Shown piece by piece: positions 9,025 through 33,800 of a stretch of 62,483 nucleotides of DNA (the first letter of the stretch is position 1; every line of letters starts with the position of its first letter). The notes under the pieces are model-generated. The model was given only the letters and a program-made list of their open reading frames with translations. It ran no database searches and was not told the DNA's origin. Both the position numbers and the translations under genes were made by a program. Source of the stretch: a virus (Duplodnaviria; Caudoviricetes); IMG/VR virus record IMGVR_UViG_3300036851_000016, positions 1-62,483 of that record. One strand, written 5' to 3'.

Positions 9025-9036
9025 TTGGAGTTAAAA

Positions 9037-10482: not shown

Positions 10483-10483
10483 A

Positions 10484-17279: not shown

Positions 17280-17301
17280 TCTGTCCTCTATTGAACGCGA
17301 A

Positions 17302-17494: not shown

Positions 17495-17507
17495 AATCTA
17501 TTGCTAA

Positions 17508-17675
17508 CTAGATGTCTGCAATTTCTGAGTCAGGTTCCTTATCGGAATCTTCCTCAATCTCAGTGTCCTCACCAATAGTTGAATCAGGCTCTTTCTCTGA
17601 TTCTTCATCAATATGAACGTCCTGAGTCTTTTCCAGTTCGTCCATGTCTACCACTTCATCATTCTGGTCTACCAT
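17508..17675 (-). CDS. Highly acidic 55-aa protein (not in ORF track)
   Basis: AAGGAG RBS; 25 of 55 residues are D/E. Confidence 0.7.
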   Translation of the reverse strand: MVDQNDEVVDMDELEKTQDVHIDEESEKEPDSTIGEDTEIEEDSDKEPDSEIADI

Positions 17676-17716
17676 GATTAGTCTCCTTGTTATTCACCCA
17701 CAATTGGGTGTAATAG

Positions 17717-18133: not shown

Positions 18134-18143
18134 GTAGTCTCTC

Positions 18144-19031: not shown

Positions 19032-19038
19032 ATCTCTC

Positions 19039-19269
19039 CTAAATTCTGCGAGGGTCAGTTAATGATGCTTCGTATTGAACTAAGAGTATTTCATCATCAT
19101 GGCGACGAAGATGATACTCAGGATGAGTGCTATCAAATCTATCCAGCTTAAGTCCTTCCACATCCTTTTCCATACGTCTAATTCTTTGCGCATTGGGAAC
19201 TCTCCTTAGTGTGATTTCTAGTTGTTCGATTAGTTCGTTAACTGTCAGTTCCAGTTCTGCTACCGTCAT
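19039..19269 (-). CDS. Hypothetical protein
   Basis: Operon packing, RBS. Confidence 0.55.
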   Translation of the reverse strand: MTVAELELTVNELIEQLEITLRRVPNAQRIRRMEKDVEGLKLDRFDSTHPEYHLRRHDDEILLVQYEASLTDPRRI

Positions 19270-19355
19270 TTCGATATAACTCCTTTTCCATCCATGTATA
19301 ACTCATAGCCACACCGGGACCACGTTTATGCATGGATTTGAAACGAAACTTTAAC

Positions 19356-19661
19356 TCAGTTATCACGGCCCGATAGGAAATCAGCAATCGCTTGAGTGTC
19401 TGCATCATGCCTCTTTTTAACACAATCACCACAATGTGGCTTAGTCATAGGCTTACCACCAGAATGTCTAAGTATTGCCTTGGTGATAATCATAGGCTCG
19501 CCACACTTATTACATTCGCATAATTTACCTTCTGCGAGGTCCAAGCGAATGTAGTGTGAACATGCTGGCTTCATGCACTTGTATACAAGAAACTCTCCGC
19601 CGCTGCGCGACAGATTGATTTTCTTATAACGGTGCAAATGGTTAGCAGCTTTACTTGCCAT
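19356..19661 (-). CDS. Zinc-binding hypothetical protein
   Basis: HLHRY, CMKPAC, CNKC, CGDC. Confidence 0.65.
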   Translation of the reverse strand: MASKAANHLHRYKKINLSRSGGEFLVYKCMKPACSHYIRLDLAEGKLCECNKCGEPMIITKAILRHSGGKPMTKPHCGDCVKKRHDADTQAIADFLSGRDN

Positions 19662-19827
19662 TACTTACTCCCGTCAAACACAACGGTTCTAACAGACCTA
19701 ATGATGCGTAGAGGATAGCGCTCTCCACTATTTTCCTTTACATAGTGTAGAGCATCCACATGACGTTTGAATGATGCCTTTAATGTCCACTTACTTCCTA
19801 GCTTAATCTCCACATAGTAATTCTTGC

Positions 19828-20034
19828 TCATGGTTTTTCCTTTGGCATTTCATCCTGTATGATTTCCATCATAGCAGTTAATGCCCTTAACAGTTTGATT
19901 GTTAGTTCTGGTGAATAGCCAAGCATCTTAATCATGAATAGCATTTGCATCATGCATGATTCTTCTGCTTCACTAATCCCATACAGTTTCTTCAAGTCCT
20001 TGATTGCTGCGACAATCCTAGCATTCTGTTCCAT
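19828..20034 (-). CDS. Hypothetical protein
   Basis: Coupled stop and start in the operon. Confidence 0.55.
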   Translation of the reverse strand: MEQNARIVAAIKDLKKLYGISEAEESCMMQMLFMIKMLGYSPELTIKLLRALTAMMEIIQDEMPKEKP

Positions 20035-20225
20035 TAGTCATTCTCCTGTAAGTGATTTATTAGTTCATCTACTGCATTGCCTGAATACTCATCAGGTGGA
20101 CAGACTAATTCTCTTGAATCGTTGAATCCTGCAACAAATTGATGCCACCAAGTTCCTAGTAATATTCCAATGAATAAGAAAGGAATACTACTATACTTAC
20201 AGACAGTCAGAAAGAAATGTAGCAT
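20034..20225 (-). CDS. Small membrane protein
   Basis: N-terminal hydrophobic segment; TAATG coupling. Confidence 0.5.
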   Translation of the reverse strand: MLHFFLTVCKYSSIPFLFIGILLGTWWHQFVAGFNDSRELVCPPDEYSGNAVDELINHLQEND

Positions 20226-21226
20226 TATTCGTCTCCATCATTAGTTGGATTCCATTCAGGACCAACCATAAACAGTTTCTTTATTTCTTCCTCTCTCATT
20301 GCAGGGTCATGCTCGCAAACTTTCACGAACGCGCAGTTACCATACTTACCTTCACAGTGCGTATAGTTTGGAGGAAAATGTCCCGACTCAGCATAGGCGA
20401 TAAGCTGATACGCATAGAAAGGTAATGTTTCTGACTGCCATTCCAAAAGTCTAGGTTCTGAGTAACAGATAGGATTACGAGTAAACTTTTCCTCAGGTTT
20501 TAGACTAGTTTGGAATCCTACTTTGTTAATGAATACTTTCTTCGAGTTTGTGACAAGACATTGTCCTGTAAACTGATTGTTCAATGACAATGTATCTCGA
20601 CGTTGTTTCATAGTCTTATGGTCAACTGGATGTATACCCTGATTAGTATCTGTGAGGAGGTCCAGTTTAGCTTTCCACAAGACTCTAATCTCATCATCTT
20701 CGTAGAGAACTTTACCTTTAACATTCTCCACTTCCAATGGAACCCAATGGTCATTACGCCAGAAGGTATTGTACTGGTCGCATGTATCTAATACATACTG
20801 CCAACCAGTCTTATAATCTCCACTATCCTTAGGAGTATTCTTAACACCCGGATAGTCATTAGGCTTATGTCCACATTTGGGTTTAGGTTGTTCTTCTGTA
20901 GGTTGGAAATCAGTGCATTGTGGACAGCCACGAATATACAATTCAGCGGCAGCAATTCCAAATGCGAAGGCTTTCTCTTTATTCAGACCATGAATTATAG
21001 TCTGATAGTAGATTTCGAGGAACTTATGAACTATCGACCCACACTCAAGCGAATTACTTTTACCACTAATCGAGACTAAATTATGGTTAAAGCGAAAATC
21101 CGCGAGGCGAGGACAGGACATAAGGGTAGTAAGTAATGTAGCATCCATGACTACATTCTTCTTACCACCTGTAATCTTTTCTACAACGTTTTCTATTACA
21201 GTATCAGTCATTCCTATACCCTTCAA
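20225..21226 (-). CDS. PD-(D/E)XK exonuclease (Cas4/RecB-like)
   Basis: SCPR, GSIVH, LD.....VDHKT, C-terminal C..C...C cluster. Confidence 0.85.
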   Translation of the reverse strand: MKGIGMTDTVIENVVEKITGGKKNVVMDATLLTTLMSCPRLADFRFNHNLVSISGKSNSLECGSIVHKFLEIYYQTIIHGLNKEKAFAFGIAAAELYIRGCPQCTDFQPTEEQPKPKCGHKPNDYPGVKNTPKDSGDYKTGWQYVLDTCDQYNTFWRNDHWVPLEVENVKGKVLYEDDEIRVLWKAKLDLLTDTNQGIHPVDHKTMKQRRDTLSLNNQFTGQCLVTNSKKVFINKVGFQTSLKPEEKFTRNPICYSEPRLLEWQSETLPFYAYQLIAYAESGHFPPNYTHCEGKYGNCAFVKVCEHDPAMREEEIKKLFMVGPEWNPTNDGDE

Positions 21227-21407
21227 TCAATACCTTGTGAGTTACATTCAGATTCTGGTCAAAGAAATCTCTGACAAAACCTGATGCTAATAGTGAGCTT
21301 TCATCTTTATCCTCAGACTGGAGAACTACTCTTACTTCCACAATAGGAGTAGGTGTATCTTTTGTCATTGGAGTAAAGACAAATTCATGCAAGTAAATGT
21401 TAGTCAT
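21204..21407 (-). CDS. Hypothetical protein
   Basis: Operon packing. Confidence 0.5.
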   Translation of the reverse strand: MTNIYLHEFVFTPMTKDTPTPIVEVRVVLQSEDKDESSLLASGFVRDFFDQNLNVTHKVLIEGYRND

Positions 21408-21495
21408 TGTTTCACCTTTATGAGCATTGAATTACATCGACTGCATTTTTGTCCTTCTTTACCTTCAGCGTGACACCAAATGCATATCCATTTAA

Positions 21496-21726
21496 TCATT
21501 GTATTGTCTCGTTAACTATCACCAATCGTTGTTCTGTAGCCACTAACTGATACCAATCAGGCTGTAACTCACCACCAGAATCAGCTATTAATACTGGTTG
21601 TCCTAGATGATTCTCGTGGAAAATTACGAACGCGAGTCCCACACGTTCAGCGCCTTTATACACGATAAACTGTGTCATGACACCAGTTAGTGATTTTAGT
21701 TTCTTACGGGATGAATTCTTTGCCAA
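21496..21726 (-). CDS. Hypothetical protein
   Basis: Operon packing. Confidence 0.5.
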   Translation of the reverse strand: MAKNSSRKKLKSLTGVMTQFIVYKGAERVGLAFVIFHENHLGQPVLIADSGGELQPDWYQLVATEQRLVIVNETIQ

Positions 21727-22045
21727 TTCTAGTCCCCTTAGGGAAGTATATGCTATTTAATGCACAGTTTGGCAGTATATAGTTTACTTCTATCAGTTCT
21801 CTATCCACTACCAATCCATCTAGTGCCTCAGTGTAATCTCCACTATTCCACCTGCATGGATTAATTATTCCCATTACACACAAGGATAACTTTGCTGATG
21901 TTATCCCTGGGTAATTGTTTACAGTCGAAAAAATTATTTCGCGATAACTAGTTTTGTCCAGTTCCATCGTGGTCACACATGCAAAAGATAAAGCGTAGTA
22001 ATCCGGTTTGATTAATCTTGCCACACATACCACACTGCCATTCAA
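21704..22045 (-). CDS. Hypothetical protein, possible winged helix
   Basis: PGITSAKL...LD.LV...ELIEV.Y; start uncertain. Confidence 0.5.
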   Translation of the reverse strand: MNGSVVCVARLIKPDYYALSFACVTTMELDKTSYREIIFSTVNNYPGITSAKLSLCVMGIINPCRWNSGDYTEALDGLVVDRELIEVNYILPNCALNSIYFPKGTRIGKEFIP

Positions 22046-22350
22046 ATGTGATAAGTGATACTGCTGTCAGGAATATCAAGCATATTACCTGACCCAGAAT
22101 CAAACCAATACGTGAGAGAAATTCTATCATCGATTACGCTTCCTTGCAGCCTTAGCAAGTTTATTGCGTTTACGATTCTTTCTTACACGTTTATCAAATA
22201 GGAAATTCCATATTGGGTTGGGATTTCAATCTGACGATGTAAAGATTCTTACTTCTGACTCTACTGATGCAAGAAACATCTGTAGGGTCTACGAAGTGAT
22301 TACCTACTTTAATCAATAATGGCTTCTTTTTCTTAGGCATTAGTATCTCC

Positions 22351-24537
22351 TTATAATGTGGCCGCAGCAGTGATGTTAGTCTTAACTTCAGCTTTACCCT
22401 TCTTTACTTTCTTAACCTGATGTTTCTTGACGATTAAAGCAGCTAAAGCTTTCGCGAAGTCTGTCTCATTCCAACGTGGAACTTTACCCTTGTTCATTAC
22501 AATGTGATAACGTCCACGCTTTTCTTCTACTATCTGGTCTAATTGCTGGTCTATTGTTCCATCAGCCTCAGGCAATGTGATGTTAATAGTCTTAGCAACT
22601 TGACCAATACGTCTAAATCTACCGGGTGTAGCTTGGTCCTCATTCTGTGGATTCCACTGTCTCTCATGAAGGATACTATCTGCGCAGGTTTGCAGGTTTA
22701 ATCCTTCACCACAAGCCAGTGTAGATGCAATCATAATGCAGCGTTTAGTTGCATTAAATTGCTCTTGAATGTCATAACCTTCAGGTCTACCAGTGTGTGC
22801 TGATGTATACTGGAATATCCTGATTCCTTGTGCTTTTAATTCCTGTGCTAATTCATACCAATCAGGATTGGATTCCTTATCAGTATTAATCAGTGCATTG
22901 TGCATCAATTGCCCAACGTCTTTATGATGCACGAATACGACTAATTTCTTATCAGTATCTTCAATAAATTCCTCAATGAATCCTAATGTTGCAGGAATCT
23001 TAGCGAGGCCCGTAATATGACGCATACGAGCCATTTTCGCGAGGATTTCTATACCAGATACCTTATCTTCCTCTCCATTGATTACAAACTCATTATACCA
23101 TTTGACGAAATCCGATACTGAATCATCGTATGTATCTTGACTCAGTTCGTCTAACTGAACTGGCATTCTCATACGATTAATATCAGGAAATTCGTCCATT
23201 ACTTCTTCGTATTCTCTACGAATGATAATGTTTGAGGTATACTCCCTGAACTTCTGTGGGTTTCTAATTCCACCCATCTTACGCTTATTACCCTCATAAT
23301 AATATTCCACCCAATTATCAAGATATGCTTGATTGGAATGGAATTTAATGGGGTCAATAAGATTGAGTGCTGGAAAGAATTCTCCGCCTCTATTCTTCCA
23401 AGGTGTTCCTGATAGTTCTAATACCTTACAATCAGTATTAGCTCCAATCAGTTTTCTAACTTCCTGTGTTCTAGTTGAGTCAACATTCTTAATCTGTTGA
23501 ACTTCATCTAGAATTACTAACTTGAATCCAACCTTAATCAATTTCTCGCGTGGGAATCTACGCAACAGGTCATAAGGTATGATGTATACCTTTAGACCGG
23601 GCATAATGTAATCTTTAGAAGTGGAAATGATTTGTCCAATGAAATCTGGTCCAAGCCATCTAACAGCCTGTTGGAACCATTGGAATTTAATAGCAGACTT
23701 GGTTACAATGAGTGTTGGTGTGTATTTCTTATGATGATATTTGAGAATCGCGAGTCCTTGCACTGTTTTGCCAAGACCCATATCATCAAATATACCTACA
23801 CCTTTTTGCATTGCTAGACCAGTCTCAGCGAATCTAGCACCTATTACTTGGAAGTTGTAGAGTTTGAATTCTCCGCACTTATCACACTGATTCTTAGTCC
23901 AAGTGTGCTTACAATTCTTAACTTCTGGTTTCCAATCATTAGACACCATAGATTCAAATGGTGTGCCCTTAGGTATGACCTTCTTAATGATATGGAAACA
24001 TTCAAGAGTAATCAGTTTAATCTGATTACCTTCTTTATCTACAGACTCAATTGCGAATTTTTCGATTGCAGTTTTACCACACTCAGGGCATTTATCCTGT
24101 AATCTAGTTACCTTGTGTGTGACATTACGCACAACCTGTTCAATAACCTTTTCCTCTACCACAACCTCTACTGTATGCCCACTACGAATAGCATCAATAA
24201 CATGGTCAGGGAGTGTAAGGTTAGAACAAGGTGATGCTACATAGCATCCTAATTCCCTAGCTTTAGTAGCCCATACTTCATTATGACCTTGACCCGGACA
24301 TAATGCGTGAGCTACTTCGTGATAAATTGTATTGACAACATCCTTAACCGGATGAATGTCAATGTGATGGGCATTAAGCATTATGCATTTATCCTTATAC
24401 ATGCATAAGCCTAAGAATGGTAGGTTAGGGTCAGATGTTAATCTAACCTTCCATTCATGTAATCCATTATCATTCAGAACCTTGCGCGTTAAATCAGCCG
24501 CGCCTTTACGGTCCATAATGGTTTCACTGTTAGTCAT
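22351..24537 (-). CDS. SprT-like metalloprotease fused to a SNF2-family helicase
   Basis: HEVAHA...GH...W (HExxH); DDMGLGKT, ILDEVQ, LSGTP..N, GEGLNLQ, WNP..EDQA..R..RIGQ. Confidence 0.88.
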   Translation of the reverse strand: MTNSETIMDRKGAADLTRKVLNDNGLHEWKVRLTSDPNLPFLGLCMYKDKCIMLNAHHIDIHPVKDVVNTIYHEVAHALCPGQGHNEVWATKARELGCYVASPCSNLTLPDHVIDAIRSGHTVEVVVEEKVIEQVVRNVTHKVTRLQDKCPECGKTAIEKFAIESVDKEGNQIKLITLECFHIIKKVIPKGTPFESMVSNDWKPEVKNCKHTWTKNQCDKCGEFKLYNFQVIGARFAETGLAMQKGVGIFDDMGLGKTVQGLAILKYHHKKYTPTLIVTKSAIKFQWFQQAVRWLGPDFIGQIISTSKDYIMPGLKVYIIPYDLLRRFPREKLIKVGFKLVILDEVQQIKNVDSTRTQEVRKLIGANTDCKVLELSGTPWKNRGGEFFPALNLIDPIKFHSNQAYLDNWVEYYYEGNKRKMGGIRNPQKFREYTSNIIIRREYEEVMDEFPDINRMRMPVQLDELSQDTYDDSVSDFVKWYNEFVINGEEDKVSGIEILAKMARMRHITGLAKIPATLGFIEEFIEDTDKKLVVFVHHKDVGQLMHNALINTDKESNPDWYELAQELKAQGIRIFQYTSAHTGRPEGYDIQEQFNATKRCIMIASTLACGEGLNLQTCADSILHERQWNPQNEDQATPGRFRRIGQVAKTINITLPEADGTIDQQLDQIVEEKRGRYHIVMNKGKVPRWNETDFAKALAALIVKKHQVKKVKKGKAEVKTNITAAATL

Positions 24538-24829
24538 TCTTTAATCCTTCAATCAGTGAATTTTCAGTTACAGGATTTTTATTTCCTGAATATGAGTCAC
24601 ACTTCTTACAAATCTCGAAACAATCAGATTGTCCTTTATGTGACATAGCGTAATGGTGAGTGTATTCTTTACAGAATGCACAATAGAACCATCCACCACC
24701 TAACCACATATTAGGATTAACTTCTAATCCTACTTGTTCGAGAAATAGTCGAGAATAGATGATTACCATATTAACCCTCAGATTTAGCTGCTGCGATACT
24801 CTTTTTAATAATCTCAGCGGCAGCCTCAA
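24530..24829 (-). CDS. Zinc-ribbon hypothetical protein
   Basis: CAFC and CKKC; start uncertain. Confidence 0.45.
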   Translation of the reverse strand: MRLPLRLLKRVSQQLNLRVNMVIIYSRLFLEQVGLEVNPNMWLGGGWFYCAFCKEYTHHYAMSHKGQSDCFEICKKCDSYSGNKNPVTENSLIEGLKND

Positions 24830-25550
24830 CAGTTACGCCTTTAGCTACAACAATCTGTTGTAACATAAATTCGCTTATGCCTAGTTCAGTTGCATACTTC
24901 TTTAATGCAACCTTATCAATCTTCTTACTAGCGGGTTTTGCGATAGGTGCGAGTTTTGGCTTGGAAGGTTTAATTGCTGATGGATTGTAGTTAATATCAG
25001 CAATCTTGAGTTTTTCACGTTCTTCCTTGCGTAATTCATTTGCAAGGTTATTCATGTAGACTTGAATGCTACGAATTCTATTATTCGCGTCTACAATCTT
25101 TTCTTGTGACTGGAAGATAACATCCTTGAAATGTGATAAATCCTTCAGAAGATGTTCTGCGAGTGCGTAGGGTTTATTGGTAATTTCAGGGTTATCATCG
25201 ATTGTTTTCTTAACATCGATAATCGCCATAGTTCCTGCATTGAATACATCAGTGCGAACTTCTATGGCATCGTTTATCTTGCGAGCTTCATCAAGTAATG
25301 CAGCTTGTGCATTAAATGATTTCTCGCGAGTAACCATCTGACCATTACCGTCATTACCTACAGGTTCGATTTTCAGATTAGATTCGCGCGTCCAACATTC
25401 TGCACACATGAGAATATTACCATATCGGATTTCAACAGGACCGATATTAGGGCAAGTCTCACATTGTGCCTGTTCTGTATGTGCTAACATTGGATACTTG
25501 CACTTAGCACACTTATCAGAGCCAATACCAGCAATGAATGGATGATTCAT
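24771..25550 (-). CDS. Zinc-finger plus coiled-coil protein with C-terminal HTH-like segment
   Basis: Three CxxC pairs; YATELGISE. Confidence 0.7.
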   Translation of the reverse strand: MNHPFIAGIGSDKCAKCKYPMLAHTEQAQCETCPNIGPVEIRYGNILMCAECWTRESNLKIEPVGNDGNGQMVTREKSFNAQAALLDEARKINDAIEVRTDVFNAGTMAIIDVKKTIDDNPEITNKPYALAEHLLKDLSHFKDVIFQSQEKIVDANNRIRSIQVYMNNLANELRKEEREKLKIADINYNPSAIKPSKPKLAPIAKPASKKIDKVALKKYATELGISEFMLQQIVVAKGVTVEAAAEIIKKSIAAAKSEG

Positions 25551-25708
25551 TATGCCACCATCCTATCATTAGAATGACGGTAGCACAATCCAATACGCTG
25601 TTCTGCGGGAACTTCTTTAACTGGAAGATTGTTAGGTGTGGTCAGTTTGCGAGGATACTTACGCGCACGCTTGATTTTCTTGCATTTCTCACAATAGAAT
25701 CTTTTCAT
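25550..25708 (-). CDS. Small basic zinc-finger protein, first gene of the leftward operon (52 aa, not in ORF track)
   Basis: MKRFYCEKCKKIKRARKYP...CYRH; AAAGGA RBS; TAATG coupling to next gene. Confidence 0.7.
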   Translation of the reverse strand: MKRFYCEKCKKIKRARKYPRKLTTPNNLPVKEVPAEQRIGLCYRHSNDRMVA

Positions 25709-25743
25709 TGTATTCCGTCCTTTCGGAACTAGGAATTAATATT

Positions 25744-25912
25744 ATGTCCACTTATTTGGACATACACTTGGCACACTACATACTGCAAGACTCAGACCAA
25801 CTACTAATAGTGTCCACTTTTGAGGACACCACAAGCTGTAGTGTATGATTACAGTTTTGTTGTGGTATTTTTACCTCATGTGTGGTAATTTTACTACAGC
25901 ATTTTTACCACA
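25744..25912. promoter_or_regulatory. Array of TGT-N12-ACA-type palindromes (operators/enhancers)
   Basis: TGTCC-N8-GGACA at 25745 and 25811; TGTGGTA..TACC/TACT variants at 25861 and 25881; half-site TACCACA to 25912. Confidence 0.65.
25784..25799 (-). promoter_or_regulatory. Sigma54-type -24/-12 promoter
   Basis: TGGTCTGAGTCTTGCA (GG-N10-GC) about 75 bp upstream of the leftward operon. Confidence 0.55.
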
Positions 25913-26006
25913 GCGAATGGAAGGCGAAGATAATATTATAGTTTCGCTTTCTCACACTTATAATTCATTACCCTTATCAGAGTTATATTATTTTCACTTC
26001 CGACCT

Positions 26007-26405
26007 GATTCTAAGCAGATTCTAACCACATTCTAAGCGGATTCTAAGCGGTTTCCAACCAACTTTTTCGGCCTAAGTCGCTCTGCCTGAGTCACTTAGC
26101 CTTACCCCTAAGAGAGAGGGGGAGGGTGCCTATAACACTCAGACCGTCCTATGCAGGTGACACTATGTAGGGGTAGGGTTATATTATTATATATTATTAA
26201 AAAAAAAAAAAAAATAAAAAGAGAATACCTAAACCCACCTGAGCGGAAGTGTCCTCAGTCTAGGACGGTCTAACTCCCATAGGCAGGGGGGGACTCTCTG
26301 AGAGGGGTAGAGCTAAGTCTATGTCAGAGAGTCACTTAGGCCGAAATCGTCGGATAGAAACAGGTTAGAAACCGTATAGAACACGGATAGAAACTGGATA
26401 GAATC
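26007..26405. repeat. Gap-free ~400-bp interrupted inverted repeat with AT/A16 core; putative replication origin
   Basis: All complementary blocks have coordinate sum 52412; five 11-bp-period TTCTA/TAGAA iterons on each flank. Confidence 0.85.
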
Positions 26406-26568
26406 CGGTAATTTGGGGTAATATTATTATATCTTGTCAATATTTTTTCGCAGACTTATACTCTAGCGAAAGTGTTTTGACTAATATTGTTGTTGGATTA
26501 GGGAAAAGAGACTTCGCGCACGCGCGAACGATAACTGTTGGATTAGTGAATAGGGGAAATGAGGGGGA

Positions 26569-26742
26569 TTATCTCCCCCTCCGAATCTTGTAGTGTTTCT
26601 TGCAGTATTCAGACCATCCCTTTAATCCATAATTACGGATGGCGTCTAATTCTCCTGATGTAGTGAGAGTCATATCCTGAGACTTTTTCATCGCGAGTAA
26701 TTGCGATAGTCTCAATTCCATTTGCGCCTGAGTTTTATCCAT
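26569..26742 (-). CDS. Hypothetical early protein (57 aa, not in ORF track)
   Basis: AGGAG RBS; MDKTQAQMELRL...; stop lies inside the GC hairpin 26561-26581. Confidence 0.6.
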   Translation of the reverse strand: MDKTQAQMELRLSQLLAMKKSQDMTLTTSGELDAIRNYGLKGWSEYCKKHYKIRRGR

Positions 26743-26762
26743 AGTTTCTCCTGTTAGTTAGT

Positions 26763-26791
26763 GAGGGGTAAGTTTGCAGTCCTTACCCCTC
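26763..26791 (-). terminator. Stem-loop after early gene
   Basis: GAGGGGTAAG/CTTACCCCTC 10-bp stem; no clear U-tract. Confidence 0.4.
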
Positions 26792-26797
26792 AGATTG

Positions 26798-27142
26798 TTA
26801 CGCCTGCGACGCTGCGAGCAATGCCTCAACCTGCTTACGTGCAGTTTCCTCTGAGACACCAAGGCGGATATAGTCGCGGACCATACGCTCCTTAATATCT
26901 TCCGGGGAAACTTCCGACGGACGATACGGAAGCAATGCGGCCTGATAGGCATTACTACGCGCGTTAGCCTTCAGGTTATCGTTAACCATATTAACGATAT
27001 TCCACTTTTTCTCAGTAATCACTGAGAGTGCTTCCGCCTCACTTGATACCTGAGGATAATCGAAAGTCTTTTCGATTTTCTCTCCGGCCTGAGGATGACC
27101 GTCCGGGACTGCGAAACTGAATTTTCCTACTAGTGTCTGCAT
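26798..27142 (-). CDS. Hypothetical immediate-early protein (114 aa)
   Basis: AAAGGAG RBS before ATG 27142; sigma70 promoter upstream; the track's TTG start is the -35 box. Confidence 0.75.
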   Translation of the reverse strand: MQTLVGKFSFAVPDGHPQAGEKIEKTFDYPQVSSEAEALSVITEKKWNIVNMVNDNLKANARSNAYQAALLPYRPSEVSPEDIKERMVRDYIRLGVSEETARKQVEALLAASQA

Positions 27143-27182
27143 TGTGTCTCCTTTCGGGGAATGGCTACCCCATCTGAGAAAC

Positions 27183-27211
27183 AGTCTACCACGATACGCC
27201 GAAATTGTCAA
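27183..27211 (-). promoter_or_regulatory. Sigma70 promoter
   Basis: TTGACA-N17-TAGACT with extended TG and an upstream A-tract. Confidence 0.75.
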
Positions 27212-27300
27212 GCTATTTTTTCGGTGTTTTCTCCTTTCCCTTTCCGCCGAGTTTCGCGAGTAGTTCAGCGTATCGCGTGTCTGTCATGACCATACATAAA

Positions 27301-27315
27301 GCATAAGCCATACCA
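27301..27315 (-). promoter_or_regulatory. Sigma54-type promoter
   Basis: TGGTATGGCTTATGC (GG-N10-GC). Confidence 0.5.
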
Positions 27316-27341
27316 CTAGCGAACCTATAATATTATAACGC

Positions 27342-27449
27342 TAAGTCCTTTGTTATCAACAACTTACCTTTATGTAACCATCCTAATTATGACAATGATT
27401 GTCAAGAGTCATGACAATAAACGGCAACTTGTTTAGAATCAATAGTTTA
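27342..27449. promoter_or_regulatory. Two IHF-consensus sites flanking a TGACA palindrome
   Basis: TATCAACAACTTA 27354-27366 and AATCAATAGTTTA 27437-27449 match WATCAANNNNTTR; TGACAATGATTGTCA 27390-27404. Confidence 0.6.
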
Positions 27450-27508
27450 CAGGTGACATTTATTGTTATGTACCATACCGGTACACCCCTCTGTAGCTGG
27501 TCCCATCT

Positions 27509-27523
27509 TGGCATGAAAATTGC
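27509..27523 (+). promoter_or_regulatory. Sigma54-type promoter
   Basis: TGGCATGAAAATTGC, near-perfect TGGCA-N6-TTGC. Confidence 0.6.
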
Positions 27524-27859
27524 GGCCCATCACAATCACACATCTTAGGAAATAATTATTAAACCCAAAAATAAAAGGGACTCCTACATGGAACAAGTCC
27601 TGAAGTGTATATAGAAATATAATATTATCTGATTGGAATGGTCCCATCTGAGCATTCTATATACAGATAGAGGATACCCCGATAATAGCTATTAGGCTGT
27701 CTCTGGTGGACGAACGGAAGCGAGGCAGTATCGGAGGTCGTTTTTTGGTTTGCGTGGCTCAGCGAGGCTCTAATACGGTCCTAGAGGGTATTCTGAAATG
27801 ACGAACGAAAAGCGAAAATACGATTATTAATTTCCTAATATTATATACAAAAAGAAAAC

Positions 27860-27888
27860 TTGACTTTCAGTTCCACATATGGTAGCTT
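27860..27888 (+). promoter_or_regulatory. Sigma70-like promoter for the rightward (late) arm
   Basis: TTGACT-N17-TAGCTT, extended TG, AT-rich UP element. Confidence 0.55.
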
Positions 27889-27980
27889 GTGTCGGTCGGA
27901 CTACTATTAGTGGACTGAAATTCCACCTAATATTAGTCTAGTTATAGTCGAGGAAGCCAGAATCGGAGAAGGAGAACAGT

Positions 27981-28208
27981 ATGCCAGTTAATCTCACAAT
28001 CACTGCTAAGTCTGGTCCAGACAAGCAGAATACTGCTGCCGTATTTACAGGTAAGCCTGGTATTCTGTTTCTTCCAGACAGAAAGATTCTTCAACTGTTT
28101 GATGGTGGAGATACTAATTCTCCTCCTATTAAGGATTTCGATTTGACTGGTGTTACCACTGTTACTTGCACTATCACTGGTAACACTTACGCATTTACTA
28201 TTTCCTAA
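27981..28208 (+). CDS. Hypothetical protein
   Basis: AAGGAG RBS. Confidence 0.7.
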   Translation: MPVNLTITAKSGPDKQNTAAVFTGKPGILFLPDRKILQLFDGGDTNSPPIKDFDLTGVTTVTCTITGNTYAFTIS

Positions 28209-28246
28209 TTAAGTAGAATTGTAAACCTTAACATAGGAGATGTGAA

Positions 28247-28474
28247 ATGCCAGACCCTGTTCCGCCTGTTTCATCATCTACTCCTGTTACTGCATCTGCT
28301 AGTACAAAGACTACAGTGGATGTAGTAGCTGCGAGGAAGAAAGCTGATGAGAATGTCCAGCATAAACAGGATGCTCTCAAGAAAGCTAATGAAGCTGTTG
28401 CGCGTGCTCATGCAGAATTAATGCAGGCACAAAAAGAAGCAGCAGAATTTCCGGAAATTAAACCAGTAATATGA
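28247..28474 (+). CDS. Hypothetical coiled-coil protein
   Basis: AGGAG RBS. Confidence 0.65.
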   Translation: MPDPVPPVSSSTPVTASASTKTTVDVVAARKKADENVQHKQDALKKANEAVARAHAELMQAQKEAAEFPEIKPVI

Positions 28475-28580
28475 AATGGATTCAGTGGATAGTAATCGTT
28501 GGTTCAATAGCGTTTATTATCCACTGTCCAATCCTAAAATCTTGGTTTGGCTTTCGTAAACCGCGTGGTCATAATGGAAG

Positions 28581-28781
28581 GTGGTTTACTTAATGGCTAA
28601 GAAAAGAAAACCTCAAGATGCTACGATAAGAAATGTTCGTGCATCTAATAGACGAAGTAGTGATTTACTACTTAGACTACATGACCTTTCAACAAAGGTA
28701 AATGATATTCACAAACTAATTCTTGAACTGCAAGCTGATATGCAGAAACTGAAACCTCAAACGGAACGTCGTAAAAGGTAA
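28581..28781 (+). CDS. Small basic coiled-coil protein
   Basis: KKRKPQDATIRNVRA plus heptad pattern. Confidence 0.55.
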   Translation: MVYLMAKKRKPQDATIRNVRASNRRSSDLLLRLHDLSTKVNDIHKLILELQADMQKLKPQTERRKR

Positions 28782-28786
28782 ATACA

Positions 28787-29377
28787 ATGCCAATGGGAAT
28801 AGTTTCGGATAAAGAGTTTGATTCTGAATTGTCCAACGCAACTGGACAGAAGATACGTGAGGAATCAAACTCTACTCCGAAACCTCAACCAGTAACAGGC
28901 GAAGTATTAGACATGCCATCCAAAGGTAGAGGAAATGGTAATGTCGAAGTTCCAAATGGTTTGCGAAGGGTAATAGGTGCAACTGCTATTGAGGAAGGTA
29001 GAGATTCAGCATTAGACCTAGCTAAACAGTTTGGAATCTCCCCCTCATCAGTAGGCGCTTATACTTCTGGTGCCACAAGCACAGCATCTTATGAAGATAA
29101 GCCTAATCAAGATGTAATCAAATCAACTAAAGATAGAATTGGTAAAGTGGCGCGAGGCAAACTCATGAAAGCCTTGCGACATATTACTGATGATAAACTA
29201 CAAGAGGCTAAAGTAGGGGAAATCGCTGCCGTAGCGAAACAAATGTCTGGTGTTATTAAAGACATGGAACCTGAACAGCCTAAAGATAATAGTAATAGTG
29301 GTGGCCCCACCTTCATTTTTTACAGCCCACACTTTAGAAAAGAAGAAAATTTCGAGGTTGTATATGCGAAGGATTAA
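28787..29377 (+). CDS. Terminase small subunit candidate (HTH)
   Basis: LAKQFGISPSSV HTH plus helical C-terminal half; upstream of the large terminase. Confidence 0.5.
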   Translation: MPMGIVSDKEFDSELSNATGQKIREESNSTPKPQPVTGEVLDMPSKGRGNGNVEVPNGLRRVIGATAIEEGRDSALDLAKQFGISPSSVGAYTSGATSTASYEDKPNQDVIKSTKDRIGKVARGKLMKALRHITDDKLQEAKVGEIAAVAKQMSGVIKDMEPEQPKDNSNSGGPTFIFYSPHFRKEENFEVVYAKD

Positions 29378-29380
29378 CCA

Positions 29381-29632
29381 ATGGGACCATTTTCTTGGGC
29401 TGCTTTAGGAGTATTACTATCTTTCTCCGTTTTTCTATCAACTGTAATTTTTAAGATGGGTCAACTATCTGCTAGAGTTGAAGCATTAGAAAAATGGAGA
29501 TGGACTATGCGTGATGATATGCGTGAAATTTCAGATATTCTTACTAATATGAAATCTGAAATGGAAAGACTCTCCACTCTAATAGAGGAGAGAACAGAAC
29601 GTAGAGATTGGGCGACGAGGAAACAATCATGA
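29381..29632 (+). CDS. Membrane-anchored coiled-coil protein (holin/antiholin-like)
   Basis: N-terminal TM plus coiled coil. Confidence 0.5.
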   Translation: MGPFSWAALGVLLSFSVFLSTVIFKMGQLSARVEALEKWRWTMRDDMREISDILTNMKSEMERLSTLIEERTERRDWATRKQS

Positions 29633-29883
29633 CAGTTCCATACAAAACTCTTCTCTCTATTGGTTATGTTCAACCAATGATTCAGAATCAGATATACGCA
29701 TTACCATCTTCACGCTGTCTGTTATTCTGTGATACAGCCGCAGCTACATTCGAGCAATCCACAACCGAAGCATTCACATTAGCAGTAGCATTAACACCAG
29801 ATGCTAATGAACAGATTGAAGTAGGTGGTGGATTCATTCGTTGCACATCAGGTGATGTGAACGTAAAACTCAGTAAACTCTAG
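29629..29883 (+). CDS. Hypothetical protein
   Basis: ATGA coupling with upstream gene. Confidence 0.6.
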   Translation: MTVPYKTLLSIGYVQPMIQNQIYALPSSRCLLFCDTAAATFEQSTTEAFTLAVALTPDANEQIEVGGGFIRCTSGDVNVKLSKL

Positions 29884-29891
29884 AGGTAATT

Positions 29892-30272
29892 ATGACATTT
29901 CTCAAGAAACTTGGAGAGATAATCGCTCAGGGTTCTAAGATTGCTGGAATGATTCTTCCATTCATTCCGAATGTAAGGAATCTTCCTGTAGAAAGAATCA
30001 CTGATACACTGAATGCGATTATCAATGTAATCGTTCAAGTTGAAGCTATTGGCGCAGTATTCAACAAGAATGGTTCCGAAATGACTGGCGAGGATAAACT
30101 GAAAGCAGCTACTCCATTAGTTGCACAGATTATTCTCCAATCAGATGTAGTGTCTGGTAAGAGGATAGAAAATCAAACTTTATTCATGACTGGAGTTAAG
30201 AAAATCACCAATGGTGTTGTTGATGTTCTTAATTCTCTCAAGGATGAAGTAACTACCGAATCTACTTCATAG
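29892..30272 (+). CDS. Hypothetical, possibly holin-like protein
   Basis: GAGG RBS; amphipathic helices with G.DKL.AA. Confidence 0.5.
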   Translation: MTFLKKLGEIIAQGSKIAGMILPFIPNVRNLPVERITDTLNAIINVIVQVEAIGAVFNKNGSEMTGEDKLKAATPLVAQIILQSDVVSGKRIENQTLFMTGVKKITNGVVDVLNSLKDEVTTESTS

Positions 30273-30284
30273 TGATGATTGAGA

Positions 30285-32075
30285 ATGGACAGACGAGACT
30301 TCCTGAAAAGATTTGCTGCGGTTCCATTTGCATTAGGAATCGAGCTTCCATCTTTTCCTTTAACGAATGATGAACGGTCGATAGCGACAATGGCATTCGA
30401 TAAAGGATTTTGGAAACCAAATAAAAAGCAGGAACAATTCCTGTCGTTGCCTACCTCTATCTTTGAGGGATTCTATGGTGGTGGTAACGCATCAGGTAAA
30501 TCTGACGTTCTATTAGTTTATGGCTTAATCCATAGATGGCATGAGAATCCCCGATTCAAGCAAGTATTTTTGCGAAGAACCTTTCCTGAACTACGGAATG
30601 AGATAGTTCCTCGTTCACGAGAAATCTATCCTAAGTTTGGAGCTACATTTAATAAAACCGACATGGCTTGGACATTCCCTAGAATGGACCAGTATGGCGG
30701 AACTGGTATGGCTAATGGCGGTGCAATGATATTCCTCGGACATTGCGAGGAAGAAAATGATGTTCATAAATATGACTCAATGGAAATTAACTTATTCACT
30801 CCTGATGAGTTAACTACTTCCACTGAATATATTTATCTTTGGATTGGATTTACTAGAACAAGAACCAGTGACCCAAATCTTCCTGCTATTATTAGGGCAG
30901 CAGGAATGCCTGGTGGTATTGGACATACATGGGTTAAGAAACGTTTCGTATCTCCTTATCCTGAAGGTGGTAAGATTATCATCGGTAAGGGAAATGTTAA
31001 ACGTATCTATATCCATTCAACAGTTGCAGACAATCCTCATGCTGACCCTGCATATGCAGCGCGTCTCGATGGATTGGGTGATGCTGAAAAGAAAGCTCGT
31101 AAGTTTGGTGATTGGGATGCATATCAAGGACAAGTATTTGATGAGTTCCGGGATAAACATTATCCTGATGAACCAGAAAATGCTTTGCATGTAGTCCAGC
31201 CATTTGAAATTCCAGAATGGTGGCCGCGTATGATTATCGGCGATTGGGGTTTCGCCGCTATGAATTACGTAGGTTTCTATGCAATATCACCAACTAAACG
31301 TCTTTATCTTTACAAGGAATTGTATTGGTTAAAGACTAAGATTGAGGATTGGGCACCTGAAGTAAAGGATATTGCCGATAGAGAGAATCCTAAGATTGTT
31401 GCATGGTGTAAGTCTGTGTCTCAAGAGCGAGGCCAAGAACATACTATTCAACAACAGATTGAAAATGCAATTGGTCGTCCTATTGAGTTATCTAATAACT
31501 CTCCTGGGAGTAGAGTTGCTGGTAAGATTCTATTGCATGAATACTTACGTTGGAAAGCTAAGCCAGTAATTCCCCCACAGGATATGCCTACTTATTCTGA
31601 AGAATATGCCATGTGGCTTCTTCGTAATAAGGGCATGATTGATTACAAAGCGTATTTAGCTTTGTTTGACCCTCCAGAAGAAGAAACTAATATTCCTAAG
31701 CTACAGATATTCTGTTGCGAGGAAACTGACCATACTGGACACCCTAATTGCTGCCCTATCATGATAGATGCAATTAAGGCATGTTCTTATGACAAGAAAA
31801 CTAAAGATGGAAAGCCGGCTGAGGACGTGGCTGAATTTGATGGGGATGACCCTTACGATGATATTCGCTATGCTGTGGATAAAGCTGAAAGATATTTCGA
31901 CGAAGCGGGCAGAGAGTTTGCGAAAATACAACGCCAAGAACAACTTACGCAGGCGTTAGCACATTCGCAAGATTTCACAGCATTCTATAGGAACATGAAT
32001 ACTATAGAGGCTAGACCTCAAATGCAGGTCATTAGACCTTTTAATAATCGTTCTCGTAATAGGTGGAGAAGATAA
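30285..32075 (+). CDS. terL: Terminase large subunit with N-terminal twin-arginine-like extension
   Basis: YGGGNASGKS Walker A, LRRTFPEL, DE Walker B, PGGIGHTWVKKRF, DWGF nuclease, DDPYDDIRY. Confidence 0.92.
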   Translation: MDRRDFLKRFAAVPFALGIELPSFPLTNDERSIATMAFDKGFWKPNKKQEQFLSLPTSIFEGFYGGGNASGKSDVLLVYGLIHRWHENPRFKQVFLRRTFPELRNEIVPRSREIYPKFGATFNKTDMAWTFPRMDQYGGTGMANGGAMIFLGHCEEENDVHKYDSMEINLFTPDELTTSTEYIYLWIGFTRTRTSDPNLPAIIRAAGMPGGIGHTWVKKRFVSPYPEGGKIIIGKGNVKRIYIHSTVADNPHADPAYAARLDGLGDAEKKARKFGDWDAYQGQVFDEFRDKHYPDEPENALHVVQPFEIPEWWPRMIIGDWGFAAMNYVGFYAISPTKRLYLYKELYWLKTKIEDWAPEVKDIADRENPKIVAWCKSVSQERGQEHTIQQQIENAIGRPIELSNNSPGSRVAGKILLHEYLRWKAKPVIPPQDMPTYSEEYAMWLLRNKGMIDYKAYLALFDPPEEETNIPKLQIFCCEETDHTGHPNCCPIMIDAIKACSYDKKTKDGKPAEDVAEFDGDDPYDDIRYAVDKAERYFDEAGREFAKIQRQEQLTQALAHSQDFTAFYRNMNTIEARPQMQVIRPFNNRSRNRWRR

Positions 32076-32076
32076 T

Positions 32077-32505
32077 ATGTTTGGATGGCTAAGAGAACTA
32101 CTTGAAATTAAATATGAGTTTCGTGAGCGTCGCACTAGATTGACAACAGAAGTCAAGAAGGATGAAGTTATTTGTCAATCTTGTGAGACTCTTAAAACAC
32201 AACTAGAGATTGCTAATTATGAGAAATCTCAATTACTTGGCAAACTATTAAAGGAGCCTGAAAAAGAATCTGAAAGAACAGAAGCTCCACCAATGAATCA
32301 TGTTCCTCGTGTAGTGCCTTGGCAAGTTAGAAGGCAAATGTTAGAACGTGAGGATAGAGAGAAAGCTAAACTATTAAAGAATGCTCCTAAACCTGTAGTT
32401 GCTACAACTAAGGTTGAAACTGAAGAAGATAAGAAAGAAACGGAATTGTTTGAGCAGGAATTAAAGAATGCCGAGCAAGCAAGAGAAAGAACAGCGCAAG
32501 GTTAA
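32077..32505 (+). CDS. Hypothetical coiled-coil protein
   Basis: ORF with RBS between terL and portal. Confidence 0.7.
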   Translation: MFGWLRELLEIKYEFRERRTRLTTEVKKDEVICQSCETLKTQLEIANYEKSQLLGKLLKEPEKESERTEAPPMNHVPRVVPWQVRRQMLEREDREKAKLLKNAPKPVVATTKVETEEDKKETELFEQELKNAEQARERTAQG

Positions 32506-33055
32506 TACCCAACCTTCTCCAGGTTTATTGCAGAGGATATTTGGTTCCTCTGAATTTACACCTGAGATTGAAGAAGGTATTAATATCGCTAGGAAGGAAC
32601 ATCCCAATCTTGCGCCTGTTAAACCTTATGGTCCTCTTTCTCGAATGCTTATGTCACAAGCGCAGGGATTTACATCCCCTGCTAGGAATATTTATTTGAA
32701 CCCTACTCAGTTACAGGGTTCATCTCCACAGGATGTTGCAGATACATTAATCCATGAACAGACTCATGTTAATCAAATGGGTCCAAGTGCATTGATTAAT
32801 TTCTTGAAGACTTTTCAAGGTAGTGACCCCTATCATCGTAGACCTGATGAAATGGAAGCGTTCACTGCTGAGATAAATCGTCGTAATAGAATGGGGCGCT
32901 CACAAACAGCAGCACCTTCTTTTACGACTGGAGAATATTATGTCCCGAAAGGTGACATACATCTTCCTCCTGAAAAGGGTATTAAGGTTGGACCTACTTC
33001 TACTGCATTAAAGAAACAGGTCGGAAAGAAACAGGGAGTAAATAATGCCAATTAA
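32468..33055 (+). CDS. Zincin-like HExxH metallopeptidase domain protein
   Basis: IYLN, LIHEQTHVNQ, E.EA. Confidence 0.65.
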   Translation: MPSKQEKEQRKVNTQPSPGLLQRIFGSSEFTPEIEEGINIARKEHPNLAPVKPYGPLSRMLMSQAQGFTSPARNIYLNPTQLQGSSPQDVADTLIHEQTHVNQMGPSALINFLKTFQGSDPYHRRPDEMEAFTAEINRRNRMGRSQTAAPSFTTGEYYVPKGDIHLPPEKGIKVGPTSTALKKQVGKKQGVNNAN

Positions 33056-33800
33056 TACTGGTCCATCTTTCAATAGAATGCCTCAAATGCTACCGCCTGG
33101 TAATAGACAACCCGGTGGTATGGTTACTAGTCATGGATTTGACCCTAGTGTTTATAGGAGTGGTCTATCAGGCCAGAATAGACGAGATTTCGATGCATTA
33201 GGTCGAAATACTGGTGGTGATTATTCTGGCTGGGCTAAAAATGCAGGGTTTGGTAATGACCCCGCTAATGCATTTAATAGGCGATATGGAATGCCACAGA
33301 CTAATATGCCTGGAGTTAATTTTCAGGATTCCGGACATGGTAATGATAGATTGCCACATCAAATGGGAAGACAGCCACGTAGAACAGGTGGCGCTGGTGG
33401 TATGGTTGACCCATCATTTCGTAGTATGATGGCTATGAAAGCTGGACAACCTACTGCGGATAGACTTGCATCACAAGGTTTCAAAGTTCAAACTCCTAGT
33501 CCGGGAATGTTTCCGGGATTAGACCCATCTATCTTTTATCAGCACTTCGACCCATCAGGTAGGGTTAGACAACCACAACAGCAAATGGACCCTATGATGG
33601 GTGGAATAGGAATGATTAATACTGGTCCTAGTGACCAAATGATGCGTCAATTTAATCCCGGAATGATGGGTGGATTTGGCGGTGGTGGTGGTGGTATTTG
33701 GAATCCTGTTTATGACGGTGGTCCAGATACTAGTGGAATGATGGGACAAATGAGAAACCGCGGAATGGGCGGTGGAATGTTCGGTAGAATGGGTTACTAA
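33045..33800 (+). CDS. Low-complexity G/M/P/Q-rich disordered protein
   Basis: GGAG RBS; INTGPS and DPS repeats; coupled to the portal start. Confidence 0.65.
   Translation: MPINTGPSFNRMPQMLPPGNRQPGGMVTSHGFDPSVYRSGLSGQNRRDFDALGRNTGGDYSGWAKNAGFGNDPANAFNRRYGMPQTNMPGVNFQDSGHGNDRLPHQMGRQPRRTGGAGGMVDPSFRSMMAMKAGQPTADRLASQGFKVQTPSPGMFPGLDPSIFYQHFDPSGRVRQPQQQMDPMMGGIGMINTGPSDQMMRQFNPGMMGGFGGGGGGIWNPVYDGGPDTSGMMGQMRNRGMGGGMFGRMGY

Follow-up and report, generated by a model that had tools for sequence, protein, structure and literature searches.

In archaeal replication origins, inverted origin recognition box (ORB) elements lie around an unwinding element and are used with Orc1/Cdc6 and MCM. In the primary origin of T7 and in ColE1-type origins, a promoter is followed by an A/T-rich or hybrid-forming region, and cut sites flanked by phased repeats have precedents in pac and cos regions. 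The origins of staphylococcal pathogenicity islands (SaPIs) are about 300 bp long, with short iterons oppositely disposed around an AT-rich center; a self-loading SF3 or MCM-like Rep binds the iterons through its winged helix, presumably as one hexamer per side (bioRxiv 10.64898/2026.10.17.759575; PMC9371898). The association of two hexamers with the origin is called an open question by the authors of the preprint (bioRxiv 10.64898/2026.10.17.759575). In parC of plasmid R1, two sets of five 11-bp iterons surround a promoter, and the iterons, each bound by one small ParR dimer, are operators (PMC2241845). Here, we describe a dyad of about 400 bp (26007 to 26405) in a 62,483-nucleotide (nt) sequence of a tailed virus (Duplodnaviria; Caudoviricetes), IMG/VR record IMGVR_UViG_3300036851_000016, the whole of which is referred to below as the window. 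Judged from its sequence and that of its relatives, this dyad is genuine, a nucleoprotein site of two-fold symmetry under strong selection and a hallmark of a large lineage of uncultured soil phages. It may well be a bidirectional replication origin, or the core of one, of the SaPI design, served by an MCM-fold helicase and probably aided by transcription, a reading that we put forward with some reserve.

The original prediction had described the locus as a gap-free dyad of alternating complementary blocks and noncomplementary spacers. A gapless scan of every possible axis in the window found 123 of 200 mirrored positions complementary at coordinate sum 52412, against a mean of 51.1 (standard deviation, 6.4) over all axes and 80 at the runner-up axis. 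From 26003 to 26198, 126 of 196 positions pair. The paired runs, of 13, 11, 7, 7, 7, 6, 6, and 5 bp plus shorter ones, are the blocks that had been named, and all of these are present where they had been placed. The unpaired spacers are equal in length on both arms, and the same base stands on the same strand at 36 of the 70 mismatched mirror positions, in agreement with the earlier description of spacers that keep their length, do not pair, and are partly alike in direct orientation. The absence of gaps holds for this genome only, since the arms of relatives differ by indels. A repeat search placed 11-bp-period arrays at 25998 to 26061 and 26351 to 26407 and inverted-repeat arms at 26003 to 26084 and 26328 to 26409. 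The axis falls inside A16 (26199 to 26214), the sole homopolymer of at least 10 nt in 62.5 kb, within the sole pure A/T run of at least 15 bp in the window (26179 to 26220; 42 bp); A+T content is 96% in the core, 46 to 47% in the flanks, and 59% in the genome. The palindrome CTAAGT-N15-ACTTAG (M1) occurs exactly twice, at 26073 to 26099 and 26313 to 26339, with a chance expectation of 0.01. A third site, which had been reported at 27342, is real but imperfect (CTAAGT-N15-ACTTAC, 27341 to 27367). From left to right, the element comprises the following features.

25982 to 25999: outer-left ATAATATTAT-like box (GTTATATTATTTTCACTT) of a repeat family; a box stands at the same relative position in close relatives.
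26003 to 26063: left iteron array, five 11-bp units at a spacing of 11, core TTCTA (TTCCA in the fifth).
26073 to 26099: left M1 palindrome, CTAAGT-N15-ACTTAG; relatives keep it, at about −106 to −149 relative to the A-tract.
26100 to 26133: left purine-pyrimidine block, TACCCCT / AGAGAG / G-run spacer / TGCCTAT.
26141 to 26166: inner-left AGACCGTCCTA...GGTGACAC, TGTCC-N8-GGACA-like (M2-like); its right half also reads as a −35-like hexamer.
26157 to 26185, plus strand: σ70-like promoter GTGACA-17-TATATT, directed toward the A-tract; score, 10 of 12.
26179 to 26220, plus strand: 42-bp pure A/T core with A16 (26199 to 26214), T, and A5; putative unwinding element.
26250 to 26267: inner-right M2, TGTCC-N8-GGACG, offset +51; mirror partner of 26141 to 26166.
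26276 to 26312: right blocks ATAGGCA / G-run spacer / CTCTCT / AGGGGTA, G-rich on the plus strand.
26313 to 26339: right M1 palindrome, CTAAGT-N15-ACTTAG.
26351 to 26409: right iteron array, five 11-bp units at a spacing of 11, core TAGAA.
26418 to 26430: outer-right ATAATATTAT-like box.

Loci of relatives were fetched with an alignment of the SprT-SNF2 helicase. All or part of the architecture was found in 13 related contigs (L004, L006, G001, L005, L007, L009, L095, L096, L266, L010, L011, L012, and L020), whose helicase identity to the window ranges from 74% down to 32%; thus, the element is genuine even though the contig under study is itself a chimera of two strains, as described below. 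Full dyads lie inside seven other independent contigs, namely, L004 (89 of 200 positions; z, about 6), L006 (90 of 200), L010, L011, L012, L020, and L266, the last of which came from a pattern scan. G001 (49,058 nt) begins and ends in the tract, with the right arm at one end and the left arm at the other, and L005, L007, L009, L095, and L096 hold a left arm. The central tract, of which each genome has a single copy in the same orientation, ranges in length from A13 to A34 across relatives. L010, L011, and L012 (46 to 50% helicase identity) and L020 (32%) each have one A13-16-T-A5-8 tract in the same orientation, and even in these distant relatives a pair of complementary C-rich/G-rich blocks flanks it, about 90 to 110 bp away on each side. 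The pattern A13TAAAA was found once per record in five of five records, and a control pattern had no matches.

In the closer clade, the components follow a fixed order from the outside to the center: a ATAATATTAT-like box, five to six 11-bp iterons, M1, a purine/pyrimidine block, and TGTCC-N8-GGACA (M2). On the left side only, an extra ATAATATTAT box immediately precedes the tract. The ATAATATTAT boxes hold a fixed distance to the A-tract in close relatives, and M2 lies at −51 to −69 in relatives. Iterons vary by phage (TTCTAAG, TTTCTAAC, ATCCCAAG, TTTCCGG, and AATCCGCCC) and share a TTYC-like core; within each phage, those of the two arms match each other, and opposed arrays of short iterons are likewise present in L004, L006, G001, and L266. 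The original prediction had proposed comparing blocks with spacers in relatives. In the arms of nine relatives, the base of the window was matched at 50% of the pairing positions and at 29% of the nonpairing positions, a difference that none of 195 circular label shifts reached.

Searches beyond these loci were also carried out. The exact pattern of the right-arm site had no match in viral contigs, and a looser 14-base pattern gave at least 119 stretches, nearly all of them by chance. Among 80 loci fetched from the pattern scan, an A/T run of at least 12 was present only in L266, and L205 is, by its contig name, the known end of G001. A metagenome scan with the helicase alignment kept 80 loci, of which only three (L094 to L096) were true relatives. 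At E ≤ 1e-20, 856 helicase relatives were found among 8,000 scored candidates, and none of them was from a cultured phage.

The left arm and the reverse-complemented right arm are 63% identical in the window, 62% in L004, 58% in L006, and 53% in G001. Orthologous arms across genomes are 37 to 56% identical, with the exception of G001 and L095 (75%), in which the sequences right of the tract look unrelated by eye. On these identities, the two arms of one genome evolve in concert. An alternative raised in the original prediction, a rod-like single-stranded DNA or RNA (or cruciform hairpin) with symmetric internal loops, would account for the strong folding of a 423-nt stretch relative to shuffles (RNA, −174 kcal/mol and z of −9.0; DNA, −80.9 kcal/mol and z of −8.1), but any inverted repeat gives such a result. 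Moreover, the mismatches show no excess of G-U-compatible pairs (7 versus 9.3 expected; 11 versus 12.2 on the other strand), and the M1 and M2 palindromes are local to each arm and would compete with long-range pairing. The indels between the arms of relatives likewise speak against a rod, as does the lack of an Rfam family (0 covariance-model matches at the gathering score in the whole window), and terminator-like hairpins at 26513 to 26581 set the dyad region apart from the upstream minus-strand genes. We consider a rod or hairpin highly improbable. Conserved pairing, concerted arms, the lack of a G-U excess, and local palindromes argue for protein sites at fixed spacing on duplex DNA, with the same proteins on both arms. 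Together with the unique and oriented A-tract, they uphold the earlier view of a helically phased, two-fold symmetric nucleoprotein site with an A/T core.

A candidate for the protein that serves the site is encoded on the minus strand, left of the dyad.

11906 to 13210, minus strand: DUF3987 protein of 434 amino acids (aa), AAA+ core with a C-terminal winged helix; second-strain copy at 56419 to 57711.

The copy in the second strain is 72% identical. The match to DUF3987 (PF13148) scored 29.1 bits against a Pfam cutoff of 27, and seven of seven aligned relatives matched the family, with a best E value of 1.4e-11. An AlphaFold2 (AF2) model built from a 74-sequence alignment reached a predicted local distance difference test score (pLDDT) of 93.5 and a predicted template modeling score (pTM) of 0.85; it superseded an earlier run with 7 sequences (pLDDT, 51) that was too poor for the ATPase core. 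The top Foldseek matches of the model were all MCM subunits (E of 2e-8 and weaker), and no staphylococcal Rep chains were among the structure matches listed. VIA-align superposition on MCM AAA+ cores gave Z scores of 18 to 20 and a root mean square deviation of 3.2 to 3.7 Å over about 265 residues. The Mcm5 alignments extend through residues 345 to 414, with a winged helix in the order H-E-H-H-E-E at 345 to 409, and the N-terminal domain of MCM is absent, residue 1 of the model aligning with the beginning of the AAA+ core. At the sequence level, the best matches of the family profile in the PDB were weak (Mcm7, E of 0.002; RPA32 winged helix, E of 0.04), and a 7-sequence profile found nothing meaningful there. 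Phage DUF3987 proteins are described as MCM-related helicases that carry a winged helix-turn-helix at their C terminus (Kazlauskas et al. 2016, PMC4889955), and one DUF3987 protein was shown to unwind DNA (PMC11724360). No known initiator gene had been recognized in the original prediction; with its modeled MCM fold and winged helix, the DUF3987 gene is a credible initiator-helicase candidate.

In L012, a free-standing 81-aa paralogue of the winged helix, 46% identical to the helicase C terminus, is encoded at 5528 to 5770 (15159 to 15401 of G006), at a distance of about 490 nt from the A-tract and on the side of the helicase. Searches of the other loci did not find it; this single case hints at a tie between the winged-helix domain and the site. 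Separately, the idea that the winged helix co-varies with the iterons was rejected, as no co-variation was visible.

The promoter-like element at the center recurs as well. A match directed toward the tract was found in 8 of 11 elements, with the −35 hexamer at −42 to −31 and a −10 hexamer that ends at −13 to −2 from the tract; under the same criteria, 28 of 378 background windows of 70 nt matched. No leftward match from the right flank was found in any of the 11 elements, and two distant relatives have a leftward match in the left flank. By eye, the right block is G-rich on the plus strand in 7 of the 8 relatives with a full right arm, so that in these and in the window a G-rich block lies about 80 to 95 nt downstream on the RNA-like strand. 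No credible open reading frame (ORF) follows the promoter, and the next 1.8 kb on that strand are antisense to a small two-gene operon. Such an arrangement would fit transcription-assisted opening or priming and, equally, a promoter regulated by the flanking arrays.

Origin function is plausible because the design resembles that of the SaPI origin and because the DUF3987 protein is modeled with an MCM fold and a C-terminal winged helix. The inverted arrays of five 11-bp iterons each would align copies of a single DNA-binding protein along the same face of the helix, on both sides of the 42-bp A/T island. The likeliest binder would be the MCM-fold DUF3987 helicase, through its C-terminal winged helix, and one helicase ring would be loaded per arm, facing the center, as has been proposed for SaPI Rep. 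Transcription from the σ70-like promoter at the A-tract may aid duplex opening or prime the family-A polymerase, and the CTAAGT-N15-ACTTAG and TGTCC-N8-GGACA palindromes may be sites of phage regulators that couple firing to the early program. We infer the identity of the binders, melting at the core, and the start of replication there. If this reading is true, the dyad offers a defined substrate of about 400 bp for a loader-free MCM-fold helicase that recognizes duplex DNA and loads in two orientations, and it marks the origin in a phage group common in soil metagenomes. Doubtful in its entirety is a fuller version, a composite, two-fold symmetric origin of a widespread lineage of uncultured soil podophages in which a minimal MCM (AAA+ core plus winged helix) would self-load as two opposed rings on the iterons, licensed by the promoter, read by the host polymerase, and gated by phage regulators at the mirrored palindromes. 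The promoter would then fire inside the A13-A34 tract into the G-rich block, melting the DNA or priming the family-A polymerase that is fused to a uracil-DNA glycosylase (UDG) domain. Such an origin, if true, would be the bacterial-virus counterpart of symmetric MCM double-hexamer loading combined with T7/ColE1-style transcriptional activation.

Several observations weigh against an origin. Of the 287 bp that separate the arrays, just 42 are A/T-rich. The Walker A region of the DUF3987 protein, read by eye, is a noncanonical SGLKKG, and its gene lies about 12.8 kb from the dyad, with some 25 intervening ORFs. Among phages with different 11-mers (TTCTAAG, ATCCCAAG, and AATCCGCCC), the winged helix hardly changes, so that it may read only a short shared core or may not be the iteron binder. 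Clear 11-bp iterons were not seen in L010 to L012, though the tract and the purine blocks are kept. The cumulative GC skew has its minimum at 24 to 28 kb, but this minimum coincides with a switch in gene orientation and is therefore not independent evidence. Among cultured phages, none was close, with identities of at most 27% for the polymerase and at most 34% for the terminase. Two further points, the ends of contigs at the tract and the likeness to R1 parC, each lead to a different explanation of the site.

Fourteen contigs, the window included, reach the element. Eight of them (the window, L004, L006, L010, L011, L012, L020, and L266) traverse it, with tracts of 13 to 19 A. The other six terminate inside the tract or no more than about 105 nt from it, as a physical genome end would also make them do: L005 ends within an A-run of at least 34, G001 has both ends in the tract, L009 ends at the tract start, L007 reads through A27 and ends about 105 nt on in G-rich sequence with a G20 run, L095 reads through A18 and ends 73 nt beyond in G-runs, and L096 ends within the left arm. 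The terminal stretches of L007 (1 to 105) and L095 (1 to 73, both in locus orientation) are low-complexity sequence with long G-runs, unlike other right arms, and probably reflect a collapse of read quality after the homopolymer rather than real sequence.

A packaging or terminus site of the cos or pac type would explain such ends: oligomers of the terminase small subunit would occupy the phased repeats of both arms, the large subunit would cleave within or next to the A-tract, and the two arms would be the two ends of virion DNA. The roughly 49-kb G001, which runs exactly from tract to tract, fits this picture, and the element lies upstream of the block with the large terminase gene (30279 to 32075). 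In the probable source sample, the tract forms the left border of the segment that the strains share; this border and the divergence to the right of the tract between G001 and L095, despite 75% identical left arms, suggest frequent breakage or exchange there. On the other hand, the contigs that read through have short tracts (A13 to A19), and the breaking contigs L005, L007, and L095 have longer tracts or homopolymer-rich sequence. Three complete relatives labeled as having direct terminal repeats share an identical 123-nt end overlap at differing map positions with the element internal and are circular assemblies. Given the short tracts of the through-contigs and the internal element of the circular relatives, homopolymer-induced breaks explain the contig ends better. 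Furthermore, 3.9 kb and about ten small ORFs separate the dyad from the large terminase gene, and a conserved promoter directed at the tract and operator-like palindromes are unexpected at a packaging site. We regard a packaging function as rather unlikely.

The second explanation is purely transcriptional: a central promoter between two operator arrays bound by a polymerizing small repressor, in the logic of R1 parC/ParR without partition, with the remaining palindromes as operators of further regulators of the early/late switch. The precedent is close, since in R1 parC two five-iteron 11-bp sets flank a promoter and act as operators (PMC2241845), and the promoter-like element at the center of the dyad is conserved. 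The motifs of the element also recur at nearby promoter-like sites, as the following surrounding features illustrate.

25745 to 25762 and 25811 to 25828: two extra TGTCC-N8-GGACA palindromes (M2) in the leader of the leftward gene block.
26569 to 27142, minus strand: two-gene operon encoding 114 aa (26798 to 27142) and 57 aa (26569 to 26742), with a Shine-Dalgarno sequence on both.
27332 to 27367, minus strand: strong σ70-like promoter TTGATA-16-TATAAT, overlapped by the imperfect third M1 (27341 to 27367).

The third M1 covers the −35 hexamer and spacer of the promoter at 27332 to 27359, and it is not conserved in L004, L006, and G001. Matches to the perfect palindrome ATAATATTAT with at most one mismatch cluster near the element, with 8 of the 13 in the window at 25736 to 27844; several of these boxes overlap −10-like hexamers on one strand or on both. 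Most relatives, L020 and L011 among them, have in their control region TGTCC-N8-GGACA palindromes that look like the operator of a dimeric regulator; one of the palindromes also scored as a terminator-like hairpin. The small unannotated two-gene operon adjoins the element and is conserved in L004 and L006 at 73 to 74% nucleotide identity. Its 114-aa and 57-aa products are candidate site-binding regulators, and a ParR-like fold is conceivable for the 114-aa protein. Several points speak against transcriptional control as the whole explanation. The central promoter has no credible downstream ORF, and the next 1.8 kb of that strand lie antisense to two well-formed genes. The arrays, with 287 bp between them, are inverted, as opposed to direct and 39 bp apart in parC, and no actin-like or ParA-type ATPase, or other partition ATPase, was found in Pfam scans of 43, 19, and 50 ORFs. 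The conserved, oriented A13-16-T-A5-8 tract and the GC-rich clamps would also be left unexplained. Exclusive transcriptional control is in our view unlikely, and transcriptional control as such is compatible with origin function.

The record itself is a complete IMG/VR virus entry, labeled linear, with a CheckV completeness of 100. Its first 17 kb (1 to 17351) and last 16 kb (46275 to 62143) hold diverged copies of the same genes in direct order, at 68 to 89% nucleotide identity. The genomes of relatives measure 44 to 49 kb (44,297 to 49,058 nt for those in IMG/VR), and the longest contig is 44.3 to 49.5 kb in 28 of the 120 helicase clusters listed, with none longer among those listed. Read depth was taken from Logan contigs of the probable source run for positions 16200 to 36199 of the window; the stretch from 26182 to 26228, treated as a repeat, is bridged by none of the listed contig pieces.

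16200 to 26181: depth, 70.7.
26229 to 26933: depth, 190.
26904 to 28037: depth, 173.
28018 to 36162: depth, 81.5.

Therefore, at least two strains share a near-identical segment of 1.8 kb, and the assembler switched strain within it. Two strains of a podophage of about 46 kb, from soil according to the labels of the metagenome runs, make up the 1.36 genome units of the record, a point that the original prediction had overlooked. The right arm lies within the shared segment, and the left arm comes from the first strain. One could then ask whether the dyad is an assembly artifact, the ends of two strains joined through the A-tract; the contig is a chimera, and contigs do break at the A-tract in the probable source run. 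However, the depth steps put the strain switch inside the shared 26229 to 28037 and not at the tract, full dyads lie inside seven other independent contigs, and G001 carries both arms at its ends. For the element as a class, the full dyads in independent contigs refute an artifact, and for this copy we find it scarcely credible. For curators of viral contigs, the case calls for caution: the A-tract and the nearby G-runs break assemblies, the shared 1.8-kb segment yields strain chimeras, and a record of two strains and 1.36 genome units was rated 100% complete. The strains also differ by a module swap of cell-wall hydrolases at equivalent places on the map (1961 to 2461 versus 48249 to 48599), with Glyco_hydro_108 in the first and a weak Peptidase_M15_4 match, below the cutoff, in the second. 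The early block of the second strain encodes a cold-shock-domain protein and a WDGH-domain protein on the minus strand (61765 to 62073 and 54723 to 55244).

To the left of the dyad, a minus-strand replication block encodes a 259-aa zinc-ribbon protein, the SprT-SNF2 helicase, a PD-(D/E)XK nuclease, a Sak4-like ATPase, the UDG-fused family-A polymerase, the DUF3987 protein, an Acb2/Tad1-like protein, and MazG. To the right, the minus-strand operon (114 and 57 aa), whose ribosome-binding sites are good, is accompanied by terminator-like hairpins and σ70-like promoters; farther right, on the plus strand, are small genes, the large terminase gene (30279 to 32075), a major-head-protein-like gene, and tail genes, as well as a gene with a weak SU10-adaptor match below the Pfam cutoff. 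Two of the minus-strand genes are unusual fusions, of a UDG-superfamily domain with the family-A DNA polymerase (13563 to 16232) and of a SprT-like metalloprotease domain with the SNF2 helicase (22351 to 24537); some helicase relatives of 1,046 to 1,052 aa contain a PF14528 domain. A protein with the Acb2/Tad1 hairpin domain is encoded in both strains, directly downstream of the DUF3987 gene (11689 to 11919 and 56182 to 56415, both minus strand; E of 1e-20 and 2e-16), and is likely a sponge for defense-signaling nucleotides.

None of the scanned ORFs matched an integrase, a recombinase, a partition ATPase, a protelomerase, or a classical initiator family, and O-, RepA-, or DnaA-like families were not found among them either. 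A DNA search of GenBank phages with 25700 to 26700 gave no match, the 792-aa ORF at 33800 to 36178 matched nothing among cultured phages, and a tRNA scan of the window found none. The small ORFs around the dyad gave noise-level matches only against Pfam and PHROGs at E ≤ 1, among them a helix-turn-helix at E of 0.1 to 0.3 in a 196-aa protein. PDB sequence searches with the DUF3987, 259-aa, and 196-aa proteins returned nothing meaningful, the ESM Atlas provided no usable lead for the 259-aa and 114-aa proteins, and a single-sequence locus search found no relatives of the 259-aa protein. The N terminus of the 259-aa protein was considered as a hypervariable specificity domain and rejected, as the full length is conserved at 41 to 54% in close relatives.

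Compared with known systems, the dyad resembles pac and cos regions in having phased repeats on both sides of a central site near packaging genes, with clustered contig ends; it differs in that the ends fit homopolymer breaks better, the terminase gene is 3.9 kb away, and a promoter and operators are present. It shares with R1 parC two sets of five 11-bp iterons flanking a promoter or promoter-like element. Unlike here, where the sets are inverted and 287 bp apart, those of parC are direct and 39 bp apart, with parM and parR adjoining; in the phage, no actin-like ATPase and no sign of a plasmid lifestyle were found. Iteron origins of the lambda/plasmid type, defined as direct iterons of about two helical turns in or beside the initiator gene with an A/T-rich region on one side, contrast with the 11-bp units, two inverted sets, and noncoding DNA seen here. 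As in archaeal origins, inverted putative initiator sites flank an A/T-rich candidate unwinding element and an MCM-fold motor is at hand, whereas no Orc1/Cdc6-like gene was found and the phage protein is without the MCM N-terminal domain. As in T7 and ColE1 origins, a promoter points toward A/T-rich DNA, its transcript could be extended by a family-A polymerase, and a G-rich block lies downstream; those origins are without two-fold symmetry or iteron arrays, and transcription here is predicted. With respect to SaPI origins, the differences are several. The SaPI origin is directly downstream of rep, whereas the dyad is about 12.8 kb from the helicase gene, and SaPI iterons of 5 to 7 nt are tightly packed, whereas those here have an 11-bp spacing. 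The dyad further differs in its 42-bp A/T core within an otherwise GC-rich 287-bp center, its two kinds of palindromes and promoter-like element, and its carrier, a lytic-looking tailed phage and not a satellite, in which binding is predicted only. Nonetheless, both are noncoding stretches of about 300 to 400 bp with five to six short repeats per side, opposed around an A/T-rich center, and both come with an element-encoded SF3 or MCM-like helicase of the hexameric class that carries a C-terminal winged helix, in the phage case as modeled.

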